Shown in pieces: positions 31,298 to 37,211 of a DNA stretch of 64,000 nt. A program made the translations under genes and the position numbers. This DNA comes from Candidatus Omnitrophota bacterium (GTDB lineage: Bacteria > Omnitrophota > Omnitrophia > Omnitrophales > Aquincolibacteriaceae), in contig PLLJ01000045.1 of NCBI GenBank assembly GCA_003140935.1, positions 2,767 to 66,766 of the forward strand, read 5' to 3'. The notes under the pieces were generated by a model. The model was not told where the DNA came from, made no database searches, and saw nothing but the letters and a program-made list of their open reading frames with translations. Within the stretch, counting starts at the first letter, position 1; every line of letters starts with the position of its first letter.

Positions 31298-31819
31298 TTA
31301 TATCTTTTTCGATTCCTGTTCCAGGCGCTTCATTTCTTCCAGGCTCGAGTTCTCTTCCCCGGCAATCTGTTGTCGGTTGTCCCCATCTTTATTCGAGTCC
31401 CGAGGAGCGAGTCCCGAGTCCCGCGGTGTTTCGTTCGAGTCCCGAGCTACGAGTCCCGAGTCCCGTGGTTTTTCGTCCGTCGTCTTGGCCTCAGGGGAAG
31501 AAAGTCCTTTTTTTGAGTCCTGTTCCAGGCGCTTCATTTCTTCCAGACTCGGGTTCTTTTCCCCGGTAGTCTGTGGTCGGTTGTCCCCATCTTTATTCGA
31601 GTCTCGAGCTACGAGTCCCGAGTCCCTGTCTTTATTCGAGTCCCGAGGAGCGAGTCCCGAGTCCCGCGGCGTTTCGTCAGCCGCAGCTTTATTCGCTCGC
31701 CGGGCCGCGATCGCCGTCCTCGCCGCCCGGATGCCAAAGATCGCGTGCGCCGGAGGCGCTCCGAGAAGAAACGTCCCCGTCACCAGTCCCGCCATCACGA
31801 TTTTAAAAGTTTTCGACAT
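31298..31819 (-). CDS. membrane-anchored/secreted repeat protein built on GGGACTC heptads
   Basis: ATG 31819 is preceded by GGGGAGGTTGGAG. The anchor is MSKTFKIVMAGLVTGTFLLGAPPAHA. Two repeats of about 68 aa follow (PRDSGL[AV][AP]RDSNKDGDNR...SLEEMKRLEQ[DE]SKK). Coding status is uncertain because the DNA is the intergenic repeat motif. Confidence 0.45.
   Translation of the reverse strand: MSKTFKIVMAGLVTGTFLLGAPPAHAIFGIRAARTAIAARRANKAAADETPRDSGLAPRDSNKDRDSGLVARDSNKDGDNRPQTTGEKNPSLEEMKRLEQDSKKGLSSPEAKTTDEKPRDSGLVARDSNETPRDSGLAPRDSNKDGDNRQQIAGEENSSLEEMKRLEQESKKI
31314..31677. repeat. tandem direct repeat, period about 204 bp, 2 copies
   Basis: The unit tcctgttccaggcgcttcatttcttccag...gtccccatctttattcgagtc...gagtcccgagtcccgcgg begins at 31314 and again at 31518. 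The second copy has an extra insert of about 38 bp. Confidence 0.85.
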
Positions 31820-31887: not shown

Positions 31888-31919
31888 ACTATTCTACGAA
31901 GGAACGGTGAAGAATAAAG
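31888..31919 (-). promoter_or_regulatory. 32-bp promoter-like motif (upstream of the repeat-protein gene)
   Basis: The minus strand reads CTTTATTCTTCACCGTTCCTTCGTAGAATAGT. It contains a TAGAAT -10-like hexamer about 70 nt upstream of ATG 31819. Confidence 0.45.
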
Positions 31920-31929
31920 TACCATTCCT

Positions 31930-32250
31930 CTATTGTTCTTCCCTCGACCCATTGATCTCATCGCCCCGCGAATATCGTGCGGTGTCTCCGGCCTTATAAT
32001 ATTTTGTGACGGAAATGACGAATTCTAAAAAGCCCCGCGCTTTGAGCTCATCCTTGATCTTCTCCAAAAGCTCCTGTCCCGGATCTTTCTGGCTCCATAT
32101 AAAAAAAGAGAGCGTATCTTTCCGGACGGTCAAATGGTCCACATTCTCATGGGCCCTTAAGATCTGTTCGAGAGGGTGCACATCCTCCAGACGCAGAAAA
32201 CGCGACGGGAATTTGATCTCAATGATCGTTAAAGTGTTTAAAAGTTTCAT
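31930..32250 (-). CDS. hypothetical protein (106 aa)
   Basis: I start it at MKLLNTLTIIEIKF (ATG 32250). No motif recognised. The TAGAAT of the 32-bp motif lies 7 nt upstream of the ATG, so the mRNA may be leaderless. Confidence 0.4.
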   Translation of the reverse strand: MKLLNTLTIIEIKFPSRFLRLEDVHPLEQILRAHENVDHLTVRKDTLSFFIWSQKDPGQELLEKIKDELKARGFLEFVISVTKYYKAGDTARYSRGDEINGSREEQ

Positions 32251-32254
32251 GCGT

Positions 32255-32286
32255 ACTATTCTACGAAGGAACGGCGAAGAATAAAG
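32255..32286 (-). promoter_or_regulatory. 32-bp promoter-like motif (immediately upstream of 31930-32250)
   Basis: The minus strand reads CTTTATTCTTCGCCGTTCCTTCGTAGAATAGT. It matches 31 of 32 positions of the copy at 31888. Confidence 0.45.
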
Positions 32287-32358
32287 CCTTTTGCGGATTA
32301 AAACAACAAACGGAGAAATCAAACAATGGAGTCATCCCTTCCCTCTTTTGGATGGCTG

Positions 32359-32970
32359 TCATCTTTTTTTCAGAGTAGCTTTGTCTTTATAGCTTGTACA
32401 TCGCACATAAAAATCAAATTGAATTAAAAAAAGAAGTATTGCGAACATAATTGTTAGAAATAAATTTTTCGTTAAACTTAATAATCCTATCGCTAATAAA
32501 GTCCCATTTAAAAAAGCCATTAAAAATACGAGGATCGGGAAATGATGCAAAAAACCTTCAAAATGTTTTGGCTCCTCATCGGTTATCGGCAACTTCAAGT
32601 ATTTTGTCAGATCGTCTTCCAGACTATTATCTGTGAAATACTTGCGAGTAAGGTTTGCGCTTTTTGCATAAAAAATCATCCGCATCCTAAGATTCATTAT
32701 GATCGCAAGGAAAATAACTCCTATAACAACTAAAAAAAGAACTATATAGACAAATGGCACTGGCAGATTATACAAGTCCCAAGTGATGGAGTTTATTTCT
32801 CTTGTTAATGCTAAGAATAAAGAAAGCGGAATCGCAATAACACCAAAATAATATTTAAATAATTGATAAAGAATTGTATATAAATGCTCGTAAAGCTCAT
32901 GCAAAAGCTTGTGCTCCTGCATCATAAATTCAAATTCTTGCTGAGCAGATAGTTGAGGATGTTTTTCCAT
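32359..32970 (-). CDS. 4-TM membrane protein, last gene of the AT-rich island
   Basis: 203 aa. Cytoplasmic N-terminus, then hydrophobic helices FGVIAIPLSLFLAL, VPFVYIVLFLVVIGVIFLAIIM, FPILVFLMAFLNGTLLAIGLLSL and LFLTIMFAILLFLIQF. AT-rich codon usage matches the three upstream genes. Confidence 0.6.
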   Translation of the reverse strand: MEKHPQLSAQQEFEFMMQEHKLLHELYEHLYTILYQLFKYYFGVIAIPLSLFLALTREINSITWDLYNLPVPFVYIVLFLVVIGVIFLAIIMNLRMRMIFYAKSANLTRKYFTDNSLEDDLTKYLKLPITDEEPKHFEGFLHHFPILVFLMAFLNGTLLAIGLLSLTKNLFLTIMFAILLFLIQFDFYVRCTSYKDKATLKKR

Positions 32971-32990
32971 TGCTATCTTTAATGGGGTCG

Positions 32991-34070
32991 TTATTTCCTT
33001 CCCAATCTTTCTAATTCCCGGTTGTATGATTCAAAGCCATGTCTTATGACTATGTTTTGCTCTCGTACTTTTCTTCGAAAAAGTTTAACTTGCCAATCCA
33101 TCCAATTCTGATGAATAAAATAATCCGCAGAAGTCTGCGCGACTCTTGGGTTATAGTTATCGAACGTTTGATTTAAAGGCCGATAACGGCAATCAGCGGT
33201 TTGAACTCCCCATTTTTTACATTCTTTAATTTTTTGCAACATTTCATAAAAATCATGTTCGAAGTTAGATATCATGAACACGTACATCTCTTTTGCTCTG
33301 TATCCGGCTTCGATCAGCATCTCGATTTGTTTTTTTATCATTTGGCGCTGGGAATATCCATGATCCCAAGCGATCCTCGGGTTAAGAAAATGTGCCTGCT
33401 TCAACAATTTCGCCAATTCTGGCGTCAAAAGCCTCCCGTCAATTCCGCACTGACTTTCAGAATAGACCGCTCGCCCATTGCACTTCGCATTCTTCAATTC
33501 ATCCAAAATGTCTTTTATATATGGATTAGCTAAAAGATTATTATCGTAAAAAATTACCCTATTGCTACAAATCTCATCTTTGATACTTTTTTTGGGAATA
33601 AATTCGGGCTCGATTTTCCAAGTTCCGCAGAATTTACATTTTCGCACACATCCTCTTGAAGAATGAACGATCTGATAATCGACATCAACTAAACTGTAAT
33701 CTGGCGCAGATGCTTCCGCCTTTGGATCCACGCCAACAAAAACTTTATCGCATTCAGATTGTTTACAGTGGTCTGGCATGAGTGATGCATAAATGCCACC
33801 GACAGTTATATGGGCCCTGGGATAATTCTTTTTGTAGAATTTCACACTATCCCACACGTATTTGGACCAATAGGTAAATAGAGAGGTAATCTTAATTTCA
33901 TCCGGACAAAACTCTCCAACCAGCTTGTCCCCTCGCACAAGTCGGACTTTATCACCATTTGCTTTGTGGTAACTGGCTAGCTTGAGTAAGCCAACAGGCA
34001 AAAAATCTCGGTGATTTTTGCTTTTTGCTGGAATCGGAAAACCTGGTTCCACTAATAATATTTTAGACAT
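32991..34070 (-). CDS. radical SAM enzyme with N-terminal B12-binding-like domain (class-B-like), AT-rich island
   Basis: SSRGCVRKCKFCGTW contains CxxxCxxC. The N-terminus ILLVEPGFP...FLPVGLLKLASYHKANGDKVRLVRGD follows the Rossmann-like pattern of B12-binding radical SAM proteins. 359 aa. Its ATG overlaps the HD gene stop (ATGTCTAA). Confidence 0.8.
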   Translation of the reverse strand: MSKILLVEPGFPIPAKSKNHRDFLPVGLLKLASYHKANGDKVRLVRGDKLVGEFCPDEIKITSLFTYWSKYVWDSVKFYKKNYPRAHITVGGIYASLMPDHCKQSECDKVFVGVDPKAEASAPDYSLVDVDYQIVHSSRGCVRKCKFCGTWKIEPEFIPKKSIKDEICSNRVIFYDNNLLANPYIKDILDELKNAKCNGRAVYSESQCGIDGRLLTPELAKLLKQAHFLNPRIAWDHGYSQRQMIKKQIEMLIEAGYRAKEMYVFMISNFEHDFYEMLQKIKECKKWGVQTADCRYRPLNQTFDNYNPRVAQTSADYFIHQNWMDWQVKLFRRKVREQNIVIRHGFESYNRELERLGRK

Positions 34071-35583
34071 TTTTATTTAACAAGGTTTCTGGTAATTTCA
34101 ATTTAATGCCATTAAATTTTATATTATTCATAACATCTTTGTACTCGGGGAGTTTTCGAGCTAATTGCTCAGGATTAGCCCATCGGACTTTAACTTCAGC
34201 GTAATTATCTTCAAAACGGAAACCATCAAAAATGGCAAATTCCGCCGTTTCTTCGAAAGAACCGTTTCTTTTCCAATCATGTATGCTATCTAAAAAAATT
34301 AATAATACGGCGAAAGGGAAACGAGAAATATTAATCGGGAAGACTTCATGCTTTCTGAGTTCTTTCCAGATTCTGCTGTCATGTAGCGCAATAGAAGTAA
34401 CCGCTGGTATAACATGGGTAACAATTAACGGCCTATTGGGACGGCTGGTCACGACTTTTGATTCGCGTAAAACTCTCACAAGAAATTGAAAACATCCTGT
34501 TACTCCATGCGATCTATGTTTTATCAAATGTTCTCGTAGTATGTCCTTGATACTAGAATCCTCATCTTCTGACATTTCGGGCGTCCAATTATTAAGGATA
34601 CGTTCGGAACAACAATGTCGAATGAAGGATTGTAATTGTATCGCAGCCTGCAAATAATCACTTTTATCAGCGATCTTTTCCAAACCAATTAGTTCTATAT
34701 CCTCATTGTACCCGTACATTTCGCCAATTAAGTTGCCTGCTTTTTGCGAAGGGTAACCAATATCATGGAATATAGAAGTAATTAACCAGATGTATTCGAT
34801 GGAAAAATCTTTTTCCCGAGGAAAAACATTTTTATAATATTTTTGAAATTCCGCATAGTATTTATCGATTATTACGCATCCCATTAACATAACTTGAAAA
34901 GAATGCAAATAATGCTCACGCGTGCCCTTCAATAAGGGCTCATAATATTTCAGCCTCAAGTAAGGTTCCGAAGAATAATGAAATCTTTTATTATCAAAGA
35001 TTTTCTTTATCGTCAAATCAACTAATTCGTATTCCTCCTCTGAGATATTTTTTGTTTTTCTTAATCGTGAATATTTCGATACAAAATCCTTTAGGATTTG
35101 GCGGTATGAAATATTGTCCAAATCGCCAACGTACGATAAAAGCTTATTTGGAACATGTCCATGCTCAGAAGCCGCCTTCTTTTTTATTAGTTGTTTATAT
35201 TTTTTTCCACTAATTGCTTTGGCTTTAATATCAAGAAGTACGGAAAGCGAAGAATTGCTTAACTGAATTAGCCCAAATCCATTATTGAAACATTCAGAAA
35301 ATATCTGATCATATTCATATTCCGGCGGAATATAATAATAAAATTCAAAATTTTTAATTTGTTTTTTTGCTTTGATGATTTCTTTAGCGCCATTCGCTGG
35401 AAAAGCATTGCTTGTATTTATATCAATTGAAATTAATTTGGACTTATAGCGGTAAAGAAGATCTGGGCTCCACGCAATACCTCTTAAAATCCGATCTCCA
35501 GCCTTTTGGGAAAGTCTTCGCCAGTTGTATTTTTTCACTAAAATTTTATTGAGTTTATCTAGAAAAATTTCTTTTTTTGACAT
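34063..35583 (-). CDS. HD-domain phosphohydrolase with uncharacterised N-terminal domain of about 230 aa, AT-rich island
   Basis: Metal-ligand series H (EHYLHSF), HD (SIFHDIGYP), H (HRSHGVTG) and D (ALHDS / LDSIHDW). 506 aa. Confidence 0.7.
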   Translation of the reverse strand: MSKKEIFLDKLNKILVKKYNWRRLSQKAGDRILRGIAWSPDLLYRYKSKLISIDINTSNAFPANGAKEIIKAKKQIKNFEFYYYIPPEYEYDQIFSECFNNGFGLIQLSNSSLSVLLDIKAKAISGKKYKQLIKKKAASEHGHVPNKLLSYVGDLDNISYRQILKDFVSKYSRLRKTKNISEEEYELVDLTIKKIFDNKRFHYSSEPYLRLKYYEPLLKGTREHYLHSFQVMLMGCVIIDKYYAEFQKYYKNVFPREKDFSIEYIWLITSIFHDIGYPSQKAGNLIGEMYGYNEDIELIGLEKIADKSDYLQAAIQLQSFIRHCCSERILNNWTPEMSEDEDSSIKDILREHLIKHRSHGVTGCFQFLVRVLRESKVVTSRPNRPLIVTHVIPAVTSIALHDSRIWKELRKHEVFPINISRFPFAVLLIFLDSIHDWKRNGSFEETAEFAIFDGFRFEDNYAEVKVRWANPEQLARKLPEYKDVMNNIKFNGIKLKLPETLLNKNV

Positions 35584-35593
35584 ATATTTGGAA

Positions 35594-36592
35594 TTATTTG
35601 TTATTTATCATTTGGTCAATGGTGTCTCGAAGTTTTTTTAAAGAAACCAAGATTCCTTCCTTTCTTTTTTTATCAGTTTCCTTCTTTAAATCAAACTCAG
35701 ATAGCTGTGAATTTAATTTATTAATATTTTTAATTAATGAACGGCTTGTTGTTTTGCTGGTCAAGGTGGGTATTTGTACTTTTTTAGTTAAGTCGTTTTT
35801 CAAGTCTTCGATTGTATACTCGATGTTTTCAATAAATCTTTTTGCTGAAGCAGCAAAAATTTCGATTTTGTCCAACTTCTTGCAAGTCATGATGGCATCG
35901 GGTATCCAAAAGAATGCGCGAGTTGTCCCAAGAAGACCTTTTTCTGCTTTCGCTATAAGCTTCCCTCTAATTTCTTCCCTCGAGTGATCCTTAAAAGTTT
36001 GGGGTATGTTTTTTTCTAACTGTTCAACAAAATTTTGTTCTATCTGCACAAGGTAACTGTCATCCAGCTTATTCTCCATAACTTTTTCTTGCGTTTCTTT
36101 ATTAAACCTCAAAAGCCGCAATCTATCTTCGACCTTTTTTCCGTCCATTTTGGTTATCTTTGCTATTTCGCCAATTAGGTCTTGATCGGTTATCGATTTG
36201 TTTTTTCTTTTTATCAAATCAACATAGAATTTTAGCGCTTGGGCTTGCGCCATCGGCTCCCATTGTTCTCTCAGCATGTGAATTTGAAACATTCGTTTTA
36301 AGCCTTCCCCTTGGGCTTTGGCTTTTTTAATGGCCAACACATGGATGGGCACGCCTTCTCGTTTAACTTTTTGAGCAGCTTTAAGCCGTCTTTCGCCATC
36401 GAGCAAAATATATTTTTTGCCTTTTTTGCTATCGTTTTTAAAAACGATCAAAGGCACCATGACTCCAAATTGCCGAATGGATTCCTCTAGTGCTATGAAA
36501 TCCTTATCCTCATAATCCTGGCCTCTGGGATTATCTGGATTGAAAGCTATATCATTAGGAGAAACATACCTGATCTGCTCGTTTTTATTCAT
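35594..36592 (-). CDS. ParB/Srx N-terminal-domain protein, first gene of the AT-rich island
   Basis: VSPNDIAFNPDNPR ... VPLIVF ... YILLDGERRLKAAQ (the ParB box II GERR arginine motif), followed by a helical, K/E-rich C-terminal half. ATG 36592 is preceded by GGAGG at a 6-nt spacing. Confidence 0.75.
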   Translation of the reverse strand: MNKNEQIRYVSPNDIAFNPDNPRGQDYEDKDFIALEESIRQFGVMVPLIVFKNDSKKGKKYILLDGERRLKAAQKVKREGVPIHVLAIKKAKAQGEGLKRMFQIHMLREQWEPMAQAQALKFYVDLIKRKNKSITDQDLIGEIAKITKMDGKKVEDRLRLLRFNKETQEKVMENKLDDSYLVQIEQNFVEQLEKNIPQTFKDHSREEIRGKLIAKAEKGLLGTTRAFFWIPDAIMTCKKLDKIEIFAASAKRFIENIEYTIEDLKNDLTKKVQIPTLTSKTTSRSLIKNINKLNSQLSEFDLKKETDKKRKEGILVSLKKLRDTIDQMINNK

Positions 36593-36761
36593 TCTATACC
36601 TCCATTTATTCCATAAATCATTTAAGATTTTTTATCTTTGTAGACGGAATCGATCCTACTTTCTTTCGTAAGTCAACGGAACACCGTCTGGGGAAAGACG
36701 TTAACTCCCCAATCTTATAGACGCACTCTTCGTTACAGGCAAGGGGAAAAAAGAAACCGCC

Positions 36762-37211
36762 TCAAAGATATAAGGCGCAGACGAAGGCGAGGGCGCCGGC
36801 GACGAGGTTGGCCAGGGTGCCGATGAGCCAGCGCTGGAGGTTATAGGCGGCGATCCGGTTCCTCGCGCTCCAATAGTACATCGGGTCGAGGCCTTCGATA
36901 TGCTCCGGCGTTTTGACGATCAACGCCCACGCCACCCATTTGGAAACGAGCTTGAACGCGAGCCACCCGACGATGATCCTGGCGGAATGCGTGGTGAACG
37001 CGATATAGAACAGGACCACTTCGAGAAGCCCGAGGACTTTGCCGAAGACCGGGCTTACCTGGCCGATGAGGAACGCCTTGGCCAGCTTCTCGTCCACGCA
37101 GTGGTAGTCTTCGCGCTTTCTCAGGAGCCTGAAGAGCCCGCGGATCGCGAACGACAGGAGCACGGCGACGGACAAACCCACCACAAAATGTTTCAGCGCC
37201 AGAAGCTGCAT
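36762..37211 (-). CDS. membrane protein, unknown function
   Basis: 149 aa, 4 hydrophobic helices. GC-rich like the backbone. The overlapping alternative-frame ORF 36841-37362 is rejected. Confidence 0.55.
   Translation of the reverse strand: MQLLALKHFVVGLSVAVLLSFAIRGLFRLLRKREDYHCVDEKLAKAFLIGQVSPVFGKVLGLLEVVLFYIAFTTHSARIIVGWLAFKLVSKWVAWALIVKTPEHIEGLDPMYYWSARNRIAAYNLQRWLIGTLANLVAGALAFVCALYL

Follow-up and report, generated by a model that had tools for sequence, protein, structure and literature searches.

A restriction-endonuclease-fold/HD-superfamily protein encoded between ParB-like and radical SAM genes in a low-GC island of an Omnitrophota bacterium

The Low-GC Island and Its Genes

The DNA analyzed here, referred to as the window, is a stretch of 64,000 nucleotides from a Candidatus Omnitrophota bacterium. 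A low-GC island within it carries four genes (Table 1). Three of these encode, in the order of transcription, a ParB-like protein, a 506-residue protein with two modules, and a radical SAM enzyme, and together they form a cassette. The fourth gene encodes a membrane protein that is not conserved as part of the cassette: among all fetched loci its homologs were found only on the contigs of this organism, and it is absent downstream of the radical SAM gene at loci L001-L011.

Table 1. Features of the cassette and its surroundings in the window
Feature	Coordinates	Strand	Basis or remarks
Low-GC island carrying the cassette	32300..36650		GC 0.29-0.43 versus ~0.55 in the flanks (composition profiles)
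203-aa multi-pass membrane protein	32359..32970	minus	no family matches
Radical SAM enzyme, 359 aa, B12-binding-like N-terminal Rossmann part	32991..34070	minus	downstream of the 506-aa gene, apparently translationally coupled
Protein of 506 aa with two modules, a REase-fold N-domain and a novel HD-superfamily module	34063..35583	minus	ATG-to-stop ORF, 506 codons
C-terminal β-hairpin + helix subdomain (small), residues ~441-506	34063..34263	minus	model; stop codon overlaps radical SAM start
HD catalytic core, residues ~221-440	34264..34923	minus	at least 6 predicted metal ligands: H224, H227, H273-D274, H359, H401-D402, D432
Helical region, residues ~121-220, part of conserved HD module	34924..35223	minus	model helices; members without the N-domain
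PD-(D/E)xK restriction-endonuclease-fold domain, residues 1-117	35233..35583	minus	α-β-β-α-β-α-β-β; active site degenerate across family
ParB_N-family protein, 332 aa, intact GERR NTP-binding box	35594..36592	minus	cassette gene 1, 10 nt upstream of 506-aa gene; Pfam ParB_N 1.6e-12
Hairpin resembling a terminator, closing the upstream host gene directly ahead of the island operon	36758..36777	minus	sequence scan

At the borders of the island in the window no tRNA, integrase, or conjugation genes were found, nor any direct repeats flanking it; a single long repeat pair was present, and it lies on one side. A promoter scan of the island gave no excess over shuffled expectation. The island is small and looks horizontally acquired, and the triad of genes looks horizontally mobile. 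At other loci the triad adjoins HsdM/S/R genes (Type I restriction-modification), AbiEii, HEPN/NTase (HEPN/MNT), HTH_17, pP_pnuc_1, or a Y1 transposase, and in Ca. Velamenicoccus it lies in an integrative and conjugative element (ICE) with TraG/T4SS. Across the loci compared, the triad stays intact while the surrounding element varies.

The open reading frame of the 506-residue protein had been noted in a preliminary description of this DNA. It is real and has 506 codons but lies on the minus strand; on the plus strand the translation of the same interval is riddled with stops, and all three peptide strings quoted earlier are found in the minus-strand translation. That the gene is real follows from ten homologs from independent metagenomes (64-76% identity), which have the same length and N terminus, and from a 74%-identical ortholog in Ca. 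Velamenicoccus archaeovorus, whose genome is complete (CP019384.1, with the cassette at ~598.7-602.3 kb) and which was the only match among the genome contigs searched. A tblastn search of PLSDB plasmids and INPHARED phages returned nothing besides a 62-residue match to the HD motif, and the close clade was absent from 2.9 million viral contigs searched with its alignment. The family defined by the HD module as a whole comprises 1275 cluster representatives (E ≤ 1e-3).

The preliminary description had recognized no motif in the N-terminal part of the protein, a fair statement as far as sequence-profile libraries go: Pfam, PADLOC, NCBIfam, and PHROGs yield nothing above threshold for any part of the 506 residues. 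The sole sub-threshold match was to the HD profile TIGR03401 of NCBIfam (residues 222-313, E-value 0.036), which scored 13.6 bits where the cut-off is 109.85. Searches of PDB sequences with the single protein and with a 128-sequence profile gave no relevant match; those to 3okz and PurE were at chance level, covered only the linker, and were discarded.

Domain Structure of the 506-residue Protein

The structure of the protein was modeled with AlphaFold from a 128-sequence alignment (pLDDT 92.5). This model supersedes an earlier one from 11 sequences, in which the HD region had a pLDDT of 65 and for which the Foldseek output was uninformative. The N-terminal ~230 residues, previously treated as a single region, turned out to be composite. 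Only ~117 residues make up an extra domain, and residues ~121-220 belong to the HD module, because the alignment of family members without an N-domain starts at about position 135 of the query. Helices are modeled in this stretch at residues 121-133, 146-152, 161-174, 181-198, and 206-217. The C-terminal subdomain consists of strands 450-457 and 461-468 and a helix at 471-486.

The N-domain has the α/β core fold of the PD-(D/E)xK superfamily and is not a housekeeping domain. It lacks the catalytic D...(D/E)-x-K triad, having D41, D54, and N56 and no lysine. Of 70 non-redundant N-domains, 20 retain Asp-41 and 42 have an acidic residue at position 54, whereas at position 56 they carry a hydrophobic residue or a gap. 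An alternative active-site arrangement based on Glu-68 is possible. Because the triad is not conserved, the domain gives no independent sign of nuclease chemistry, and it may instead act as a sensor. The suggestion that the N-terminal part is a sensor or nucleic acid-binding domain may hold in a narrower form: the first ~117 residues adopt a restriction-endonuclease (REase) fold, and residues ~121-220 are not a separate sensor domain.

The HD module has an all-α HD fold. The H, HD, H, D ligand series reported previously is present in the C-terminal ~280 residues and is conserved far beyond chance. His-227, His-273, Asp-274, His-359, and His-401 are invariant in all 121 non-redundant family members; Asp-432 and Arg-439 are kept in 120 members and His-224 in 112. 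The HD-core residues Trp-266, Gly-235, and Leu-428 are also invariant. The H...HD...H...H...D set is complete and belongs to the type that coordinates a pair of metal ions, forming a predicted metal site. Di-iron HD oxygenases such as MIOX and PhnZ have ligands in this count and order, H/HD/H/H/D. The six-ligand site (H227, H273-D274, H359, H401, and D432) could on that ground be a mixed-valent di-iron center like those of MIOX, PhnZ, and TmpB, serving oxidative C-P or C-C cleavage. We consider this highly improbable, as the partner radical SAM enzyme is oxygen-sensitive and no phosphonate or inositol genes lie nearby.

Neither the 506-residue protein, which has no Pfam match at E ≤ 1, nor any of 10 + 52 other family members is matched above threshold by a curated HD profile from Pfam (PF01966 and its relatives) or NCBIfam. 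Among HD phosphohydrolases and phosphodiesterases the structurally nearest are the C-terminal domain of GppA/PPX, the class I cyclic-nucleotide phosphodiesterases (PDEs), HD-GYP proteins, PgpH, YhaM, and SAMHD1, with an identity of only 7-15% to the 506-residue protein. Foldseek with the 506-residue model did not retrieve HD phosphohydrolase/phosphodiesterase relatives. Compared with known HD enzymes, the protein has an additional helical N-terminal extension (residues ~121-220) and a C-terminal β/α subdomain, is fused to a REase-fold domain, and shares an operon with a ParB.

Membership in three established HD families was considered and rejected. Class I cyclic-nucleotide PDEs carry the signature H-D-x-x-H-x(4)-N (PDEase_I); here HD-x2-H is absent, HDIGY standing in its place, and Pfam PDEase_I does not match. 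The HD-GYP phosphodiesterases of c-di-GMP have an HD motif and a separate downstream HHExxDGxGYP motif. The local motif of the 506-residue protein is F-H-D-x-G-Y-P, so that its sole GYP directly follows the HD pair (HDIGYP), and no Pfam match was obtained. A Cas3-type HD nuclease was excluded by the lack of any Pfam, NCBIfam, or PADLOC match and by the absence of cas genes at every locus. By fold the HD module comes closest to nucleotide and polyphosphate hydrolases and to cyclic-nucleotide PDEs, and not to Cas3. In addition, two GAF domains precede the core in one family member (GAF-GAF-core), an architecture like that of eukaryotic PDEs. Both observations favor a small molecule over DNA as the substrate.

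The ParB-like and Radical SAM Partners

The product of the upstream gene matches TIGR00180 and Noc in addition to ParB_N, and its matches in the PDB are Spo0J, ParB, and Noc. Its NTP-binding box reads LLDGERRLKAAQK, with the GERR residues at positions 66-69, and a G(E/D)RR box is present in 11 of 11 ParB partners of family members. Orthologs of the 506-residue protein retain their neighbors: a ParB gene lies 0-14 nt upstream in 11 of the 13 distinct family proteins sampled, a small sample biased to the close clade, and a radical SAM gene overlaps or directly follows wherever sequence reaches, except at L112, in a clade without the N-domain. One clade has ParB and the HD core and no radical SAM enzyme, and an HD-core-only member, paired with ParB, adjoins a DNA methyltransferase in the place of the radical SAM gene. 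The most persistent partner of the family is the ParB-like gene, which the preliminary description did not mention, and not the radical SAM gene.

The similarity to ParB_N, Noc, and Spo0J, the ICE location in Ca. Velamenicoccus, and an excisionase-like HTH_17 gene upstream at several loci would fit an integrative element in which the ParB-like protein serves partition or regulation and the genes for the HD protein and radical SAM enzyme are metabolic cargo that has no role in conflict. We find this very doubtful. No cognate ParA was found in the listed neighborhoods of family loci or in the window, which led us to reject a ParABS partition system, and the HTH and dimerization domains of ParB were not detected (HTH_ParB only at a sub-threshold E of 0.039). 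In addition, integrase, tRNA, and conjugation genes are missing from the island in the window, and the three genes stay together as the surrounding element changes.

The window ParB also has a weak match to GmrSD_N (E 4.3e-4). Together with the occurrence of the ParB-HD pair without a radical SAM enzyme, the fast evolution of this pair, and the recurrent fusion of ParB-superfamily domains to nucleases in such systems (PMC3632139), this match could indicate modification-dependent (Type IV-like) restriction or abortive infection. The ParB-like NTPase and the REase-fold/HD nuclease would then constitute a split GmrSD/BrxU/SspE acting on modified or aberrant DNA, and the radical SAM enzyme would be an accessory, for example a repairing or activating one. 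However, the GmrSD_N match falls below the Pfam threshold, the DUF1524 nuclease is absent, and the extreme conservation of the radical SAM enzyme and its translational coupling in the clade argue for a central role. We judge such a split Type IV-like system to be quite unlikely.

Assignment of the downstream gene product to the radical SAM superfamily rests on the CxxxCxxC motif and on profile matches. The motif (C141-x3-C145-x2-C148) is invariant in 27 sequences; the Pfam Radical_SAM match (3.9e-6, 27.6 bits) lies just under the cut-off of 29.5, the B12-binding match has an E-value of 0.0026, and phrog_9298, "radical SAM domain protein," matches at 2e-38. For many homologs the PF04055 assignment is precomputed. 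There are 2400 homologs, more than 120 of them at 65-78% identity and distributed over many phyla; relatives occur on only 7 of 2.9 million viral contigs, and PDB searches by sequence and by profile found none. The stop codon of the 506-residue gene overlaps the start of the radical SAM gene, as reported previously, by 8 nt (34063-34070), and homologous loci keep an overlap of 4 or 8 nt. Judged from this arrangement, the two genes are translationally coupled in the clade and the coupling is conserved; expression of the two proteins may be stoichiometric, as had been proposed from the overlap.

The radical SAM enzyme appears to be the constant element of a wider set of systems in which its partners are swappable. 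Elsewhere these include a GHKL protein related to the BbrUII/HgiDII REases, ParB, DGQHR/DpdB-like proteins, PbeC with a DndE-like protein, SNF2, and HerA-like proteins; the Rhizobium plasmid pR132505 follows the same logic of one radical SAM enzyme with exchangeable partners. PADLOC assigned partners of related radical SAM enzymes to PbeC, DpdB, REase_II, and the candidate systems PDC-M38A/PDC-M34B. In most radical SAM systems the -1 slot is taken by proteins unrelated to the 506-residue protein (NB1, GHKL/ParB-CTD); a profile of NB1 had no match in the PDB, and BLASTP of the upstream partners at L012 and L014 revealed no domain in common with the 506-residue protein. The GHKL and ParB proteins found elsewhere have a C-terminal domain in common, in which a putative R-x4-H motif of the HEPN-like kind was assigned by eye.

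The three genes diverge at different rates. At L100 all three have co-diverged (ParB 32%, HD-family protein ~31%, and radical SAM enzyme 39% identity), and at L034 and L038 the radical SAM enzymes are 74-76% identical at 29-30% for the HD proteins and 32-41% for ParB. The fast divergence of ParB and HD relative to the radical SAM enzyme fits specificity or arms-race components on a constant enzymatic core.

The tight coupling to the radical SAM gene suggests a common pathway, and with the GAF-GAF member, the degenerate REase triad, and the intact GERR box of a protein family that binds CTP, it is consistent with an HD module that acts as a phosphohydrolase or phosphodiesterase on a small nucleotide, be it a (d)NTP or a cyclic or modified nucleotide. 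The REase-fold domain would then be regulatory or DNA-sensing. In a viperin-like manner, the HD module might supply or trim what the radical SAM enzyme uses or makes, the NTP-binding component being ParB, or it might deplete nucleotides as defense enzymes of the SAMHD1/dGTPase type do. The lack of the class I PDE motif and of any Pfam or NCBIfam match to a nucleotide-hydrolase HD family counts against this, as do the occupants of the -1 slot in most radical SAM systems, which are not nucleotide hydrolases, and the ParB-HD pair that occurs beside a DNA methyltransferase with no radical SAM enzyme. On balance a nucleotide substrate seems to us unlikely.

A Proposed Role in DNA Modification and Restriction

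The cassette, ParB-like → REase-fold/HD → radical SAM, looks like an undescribed DNA-modification or defense cassette. Our preferred reading, held tentatively and at a little under even confidence, is that the 506-residue protein serves as effector, an HD phosphodiesterase directed at DNA, in a conflict system that is ParB-guided, radical SAM-linked, and similar to restriction-modification. The ParB-like protein would be an NTP-gated clamp or sensor that loads on DNA and recruits its partners. The radical SAM enzyme would introduce a radical-based covalent change on DNA that marks it as self, or, less likely, would act on a nucleotide. The 506-residue protein would use its largely non-catalytic REase-fold domain to bind DNA, and its HD di-metal center would cut phosphodiester bonds when the DNA is unmarked or foreign, as the HD domain of Cas3 does.

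A broader reading makes the cassette one variant of a large undescribed family in which a ParB-superfamily clamp (ParB_N or DGQHR) delivers the B12-binding-like radical SAM enzyme to place a new, radical-derived DNA mark and interchangeable effectors attack unmarked DNA. The effector would be the REase-fold/HD protein here, a ParB-guided HD restriction nuclease of a new class, and GHKL or ParB proteins, SNF2, or PbeC/DndE modules elsewhere. We regard this extension as possible and clearly less secure than the preferred reading.

PADLOC-DB v2.0.0 has no match for ParB, the 506-residue protein, or the membrane protein and only a noise-level match for the radical SAM enzyme, so that the label "defense" is one of guilt by association. 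A family clade of ~600 residues, which occurs without ParB in RiPP-like radical SAM-SPASM/PqqD clusters, is left unexplained by a DNA-restriction model; the SPASM-type enzyme there is unrelated to the window radical SAM enzyme. Full-text literature searches found no description of a ParB-HD-radical SAM cassette or of its radical SAM enzyme. The Ophion system (radical SAM + PHP + PRTase) is a different one.

Several known systems resemble the cassette in part. CRISPR interference uses HD nucleases, and as in Cas3 and Cas10, an HD DNA-cleaving effector would be recruited by a partner module in defense (PMC3632139). This is a working analogy only, as there is no detectable sequence relationship and no helicase or Cascade, and the partners here are a ParB-like protein and a radical SAM enzyme. 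In GmrSD, BrxU, and SspE (ParB/Srx-like NTPase domain DUF262 and nuclease domain DUF1524) a ParB-superfamily NTP-binding module is likewise coupled to a nuclease module, and such domains are recurrently paired with nucleases in DNA-modification systems (PMC3632139). In contrast to these, the cassette encodes two separate polypeptides, its ParB has a GERR box and belongs to the ParB_N/Spo0J type, an HD protein (with a REase fold) takes the place of the His-Me finger as candidate nuclease, and a radical SAM enzyme is coupled.

Elsewhere the lineage of the partner radical SAM enzyme is linked to DGQHR/DpdB-like, PbeC (CxC ABC ATPase), and DndE-like proteins and so touches on Dnd, Dpd, and PbeABCD (CxC-ABC + DndE), anchors that carry exchangeable modification and restriction modules (Kaur et al. 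2024; PMC10853773). Nevertheless, the window has no homologs of DndA/C, DpdA/C, SspA-D, or PbeA and no PADLOC model match, and the putative modifying enzyme is a radical SAM enzyme, which those systems do not use. Precedents for the ParB and radical SAM part of the model come from phages. ParB-like proteins activate the DNA-modifying T-dioxygenases (5mYOX/ParB) as obligatory partners (PMC13229309), and the radical SAM enzyme gp53 of phage M6 installs a DNA modification, acting on bases post-replicatively (PMC8989533). Those systems serve phage counter-defense with Fe/2OG dioxygenases or SPL-like radical SAM enzymes, whereas the cassette is cellular or island-borne, its radical SAM enzyme is B12-binding-like (COG1032-type), and the HD/REase protein sits between ParB and radical SAM.

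The HD-module family lies outside every curated library, and defining it would annotate many "hypothetical proteins" among its representatives. Its pairing with ParB adds to an emerging picture in which ParB/CTP-clamp proteins have repeatedly been recruited from chromosome segregation to guide enzymes that modify or cut DNA. The partner radical SAM enzyme, strongly conserved across phyla, belongs to a modular network whose other components are of the Dnd, Dpd, Pbe, GHKL, and SNF2 types. If it modifies DNA, it would represent a new chemistry by which hosts mark themselves and, in anaerobes, a new source of epigenetic marks, and the 506-residue protein would be the cognate restriction enzyme.

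The gene and its low-GC island

The HD protein is encoded by an ATG-to-stop open reading frame of 506 codons. The preliminary description had the coordinates right, and the peptides it quoted are found in the product, but the gene lies on the minus strand; the plus strand over the same interval is closed. The composition profile places the gene, with three others of the same orientation, in an island of low GC content (0.29-0.43 versus ~0.55 outside) with sharp borders at ~32.3 and 36.65 kb. Only 10 nt separate the stop codon of the upstream ParB_N gene from the start of the HD gene, and the HD stop codon overlaps the start of the radical SAM (rSAM) gene by 8 nt. The fourth gene encodes a membrane protein specific to the island of this organism: none of the other cassette loci compared carries a homolog. 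It may be a lineage-specific add-on such as a membrane effector or immunity protein.

Coordinates of features in the window and of rSAM loci elsewhere
Feature	Position	Strand	Remark
ParB_N protein, 332 aa	35594-36592	-	
HD protein, 506 aa	34063-35583	-	
Radical SAM protein, 359 aa	32991-34070	-	
Multi-pass membrane protein, 203 aa	32359-32970	-	fourth low-GC gene
Terminator-like hairpin	36777-36758		closes preceding host gene
32-nt direct repeat	31888-31919 and 32255-32286		
130-aa ORF	31930-32322		
Repeat protein, 178 aa	31298-31834	-	tandem units at 31392-31665
DUF1016_N/nuclease fusion, 450 aa	38208-39560	-	
Second radical SAM-like protein, 378 aa	28247-29383	-	
NB0/NB1/rSAM examples	L020-L099, e.g. 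L060:2057-3034, L050:501-2090		
PbeC/DndE-like and DGQHR/DpdB-like rSAM variants	L078:2449-6086; L082:343-3932		

A direct repeat coincides exactly with the downstream (low-coordinate) border of the island. Its copies are 97% identical, lie 367 nt apart and bracket a 130-aa open reading frame. No copy turned up at the opposite border, so this is not a simple att pair. The 178-aa protein contains reiterated PRDSGL(V/A)ARDSNKDGDN-type repeats, in a repeat-rich stretch with 39-42-nt tandem units. Its gene encodes 92 aa in one metagenome contig of the same organism (L016) and 178 aa in another (L017), and the repeat copy number therefore appears to be variable.

Around 1.6 kb upstream of the island is an unusual fusion of a signal-peptide-like Pro/Ser-rich N terminus, a DUF1016_N (YhcG-like) domain and, at the C terminus, a staphylococcal-nuclease domain; it may be a further nuclease of this neighbourhood. 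A second radical SAM-like gene, unrelated to that of the cassette, lies in host DNA of normal GC content downstream of genes for DoxX and hemerythrin, with a sub-threshold Radical_SAM match and an HHH_3 (helix-hairpin-helix) match; the latter motif suggests a DNA-related enzyme, perhaps spore-photoproduct-lyase-like.

An HD module and an REase-fold domain with a degenerate triad

The HD protein had no match in Pfam, PADLOC or PHROGs and no sequence relative in the PDB. Its sole NCBIfam match, to TIGR03401 (HD/cyanamide hydratase) over residues 222-313, was far below threshold (E = 0.036). A word-indexed search returned only ten close relatives, with identities of 64-76%, and a single distant one of 23%. 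When the alignment of the close relatives was used for an exhaustive HMMER search, 1275 cluster representatives came up at E ≤ 1e-3, 126 of them at E ≤ 1e-30. In a 128-sequence alignment His-227, Gly-235, Trp-266, His-273, Asp-274, His-359, His-401 and Leu-428 are invariant, and His-224, Asp-432 and Arg-439 are conserved at ≥90%. The H/HD/H/D ligand series noted in the preliminary description is borne out by the non-redundant rows, all 121 of which have the five His/Asp ligands (120 of 121 for Asp-432 and Arg-439). The HD site is intact, invariant and of the di-metal type. That the protein is a di-iron HD oxygenase we consider highly improbable. By the criteria specific to each, it does not qualify as a class I phosphodiesterase, an HD-GYP protein or Cas3.

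AlphaFold2 gave a confident model from the same alignment (pLDDT 92.5, pTM 0.93). Foldseek, queried with it, retrieved no HD structure and gave no match of any kind at E ≤ 1e-3. By fold the protein belongs to the known HD and PD-(D/E)xK superfamilies; it belongs to no curated family. The nearest folds are nucleotide/polyphosphate hydrolases and phosphodiesterases, and one family member has two GAF domains. Both observations favor the main rival to the mechanism proposed below, namely nucleotide hydrolysis by the HD centre in a pathway common with the rSAM, which we rate as rather unlikely.

The N-terminal ~230 aa, previously described as one region, comprise two parts. Many family members lack the REase-fold N-domain (residues 1-117) and align only from query position ~135, which makes residues ~121-220, a set of five helices, part of the conserved HD module. 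An iterated domain HMM found the N-domain in ~76 of 160 representatives, with Trp-38, Pro-40, Cys-98 and Gly-102-x-Gly-104-Leu-105 conserved. The REase triad is degenerate: Asp-41 is present in 20/70 sequences, position 54 is acidic in 42/70, and none has Lys at position 56. The window protein has Asp-41, Asp-54, Asn-56 and Glu-68. Since the catalytic positions are not maintained, the N-domain probably serves in DNA binding, sensing or assembly rather than as the catalytic centre, although it may retain residual activity.

Genomic company of the HD and rSAM families

Every close relative sampled has the order ParB_N, 505-506-aa protein, rSAM (359-386 aa), and the stop-start overlap of the preliminary description recurs as 4 or 8 nt; translational coupling of the HD gene to the rSAM gene is conserved. 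Among more distant members, P0138 (31% identity) retains ParB (32%) and rSAM (39%) with genes touching or overlapping, P0132 (28%) retains ParB on a contig that ends after it, and loci L034 and L038 retain the triad. ParB lies 0-14 nt upstream in 11/13 distinct family proteins, a small sample biased to the close clade, and a G(E/D)RR box is kept in 11/11 ParBs. The N-domain-less P0177 (364 aa) has ParB without the rSAM, and next to the pair is an N6_N4 DNA methyltransferase of divergent sequence. We consider it unlikely that the cassette is a split ParB and nuclease pair of Type IV-like character to which the rSAM is accessory.

The neighbours of the triad vary between loci and are of the sort commonly met in defence islands and on mobile elements (HsdM/HsdS/HsdR, AbiEii, HEPN with nucleotidyltransferase, HTH_17, pP_pnuc_1 and Y1 transposase). 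TraG/T4SS genes lie near the triad in Ca. Velamenicoccus archaeovorus, the genome of which is complete, and Ca. Velamenicoccus alone carries the close clade among 185,579 species representatives; PLSDB plasmids, INPHARED phages and IMG/VR contigs have no member of it. A function in element maintenance is very unlikely, given that no ParA occurs in any neighbourhood examined.

The only branch sampled without ParB is a ~600-aa clade (P0011, P0135). It directly follows a SPASM-type rSAM, a PqqD-like gene and a 58-aa open reading frame in a RiPP-like cluster (L003:7773-10728, L102:192-3555). This SPASM-type enzyme is unrelated to the window rSAM, and the HD family is thus linked to two unrelated radical SAM lineages. 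None of the models, preferred or rival, accounts for this setting.

The rSAM has 2400 homologs at E ≤ 1e-3, with >120 at 65-78% identity from Elusimicrobiota, Nanoarchaeota, Zixibacteria, Atribacterota, Bacteroidota, Ignavibacteria and others. Its CxxxCxxC motif and four other cysteines are invariant. Among 71 usable of 80 metagenome loci of this clade, with mechanically called open reading frames, just two have an HD-family protein ahead of the rSAM; a third (L049) was left out of the count because its rSAM frame is truncated. The commonest layout is NB0, NB1, rSAM. NB0 (43 loci) is either a GHKL ATPase akin to the N terminus of the BbrUII/HgiDII REases or a ParB_N protein; a domain common to the C termini of both types bears an R-x4-H motif, which by eye looks HEPN-like. 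NB1, an unannotated protein of ~325 aa immediately ahead of the rSAM in 32 loci, has invariant Lys-22, Arg-26, Trp-29, Asp-57, Glu-107, Leu-132 and Asp-133 and only a weak match, to NF047698. These genes form a widespread three-gene system, of which we found no description in the literature.

Immediately ahead of the rSAM, other loci have a DndE-like small protein preceded by a PbeC/CxC ABC ATPase (PADLOC PbeC, 2.7e-132), an REase with a DGQHR/DpdB-like protein, a ParB-like protein preceded by an SNF2 helicase, or a HerA-like ATPase; HsdM/HsdS or N6_N4 methyltransferases are often downstream. Rhizobium leguminosarum plasmid pR132505 (L111, NC_012854.1 9482-22549) encodes a helicase, ParB_N, DGQHR, a 543-aa radical SAM protein (29% identity to the rSAM) and an ATPase, in a cultured, tractable host. 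Marinitoga camini virus 1 has a relative at 35%. The rSAM gene is the constant element of the system, around which Dnd-, Dpd-, Pbe-, GHKL- and SNF2-type components are exchanged as modules. Within this one clade, between L034/L038 and the window, the rSAM is 74-76% identical, versus 29-30% for the HD protein and 32-41% for ParB, suggesting either much faster evolution of the ParB/HD pair or module exchange between cassette components.

A proposed DNA-marking system

From sequence, predicted structure and context we tentatively propose, at a little under an even chance, a ParB clamp or sensor acting with a DNA-marking rSAM and a phosphodiesterase. ParB would load onto DNA and serve there as a clamp or sensor gated by NTP, the rSAM would place a radical-based mark on DNA, and the REase-fold/HD protein would act as a DNA-directed phosphodiesterase against unmarked or foreign DNA. 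What has been observed is the domain composition, the HD site, the degenerate REase triad, obligate ParB adjacency, rSAM coupling, the island or mobile context beside R-M and Abi systems and the module exchange around the rSAM. Each step has precedent: ParB-like partners switch on DNA-modifying dioxygenases (PMC13229309), an rSAM installs a DNA modification (PMC8989533), ParB-superfamily domains and nucleases are combined in DNA-modification-linked systems and HD nucleases serve in CRISPR interference (PMC3632139), and CxC-ABC/DndE anchors carry modules for modification and restriction that can replace one another (PMC10853773).

None of the window cassette's components matched a PADLOC model, and full-text literature searches turned up no account of this rSAM lineage or of a ParB-HD-rSAM cassette. 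Ophion is a different rSAM system. The 506-aa protein represents a new HD family within a new domain and operon architecture. We give a low but appreciable chance to the possibility that the whole cassette stands for a new class of DNA modification/restriction system based on an rSAM.
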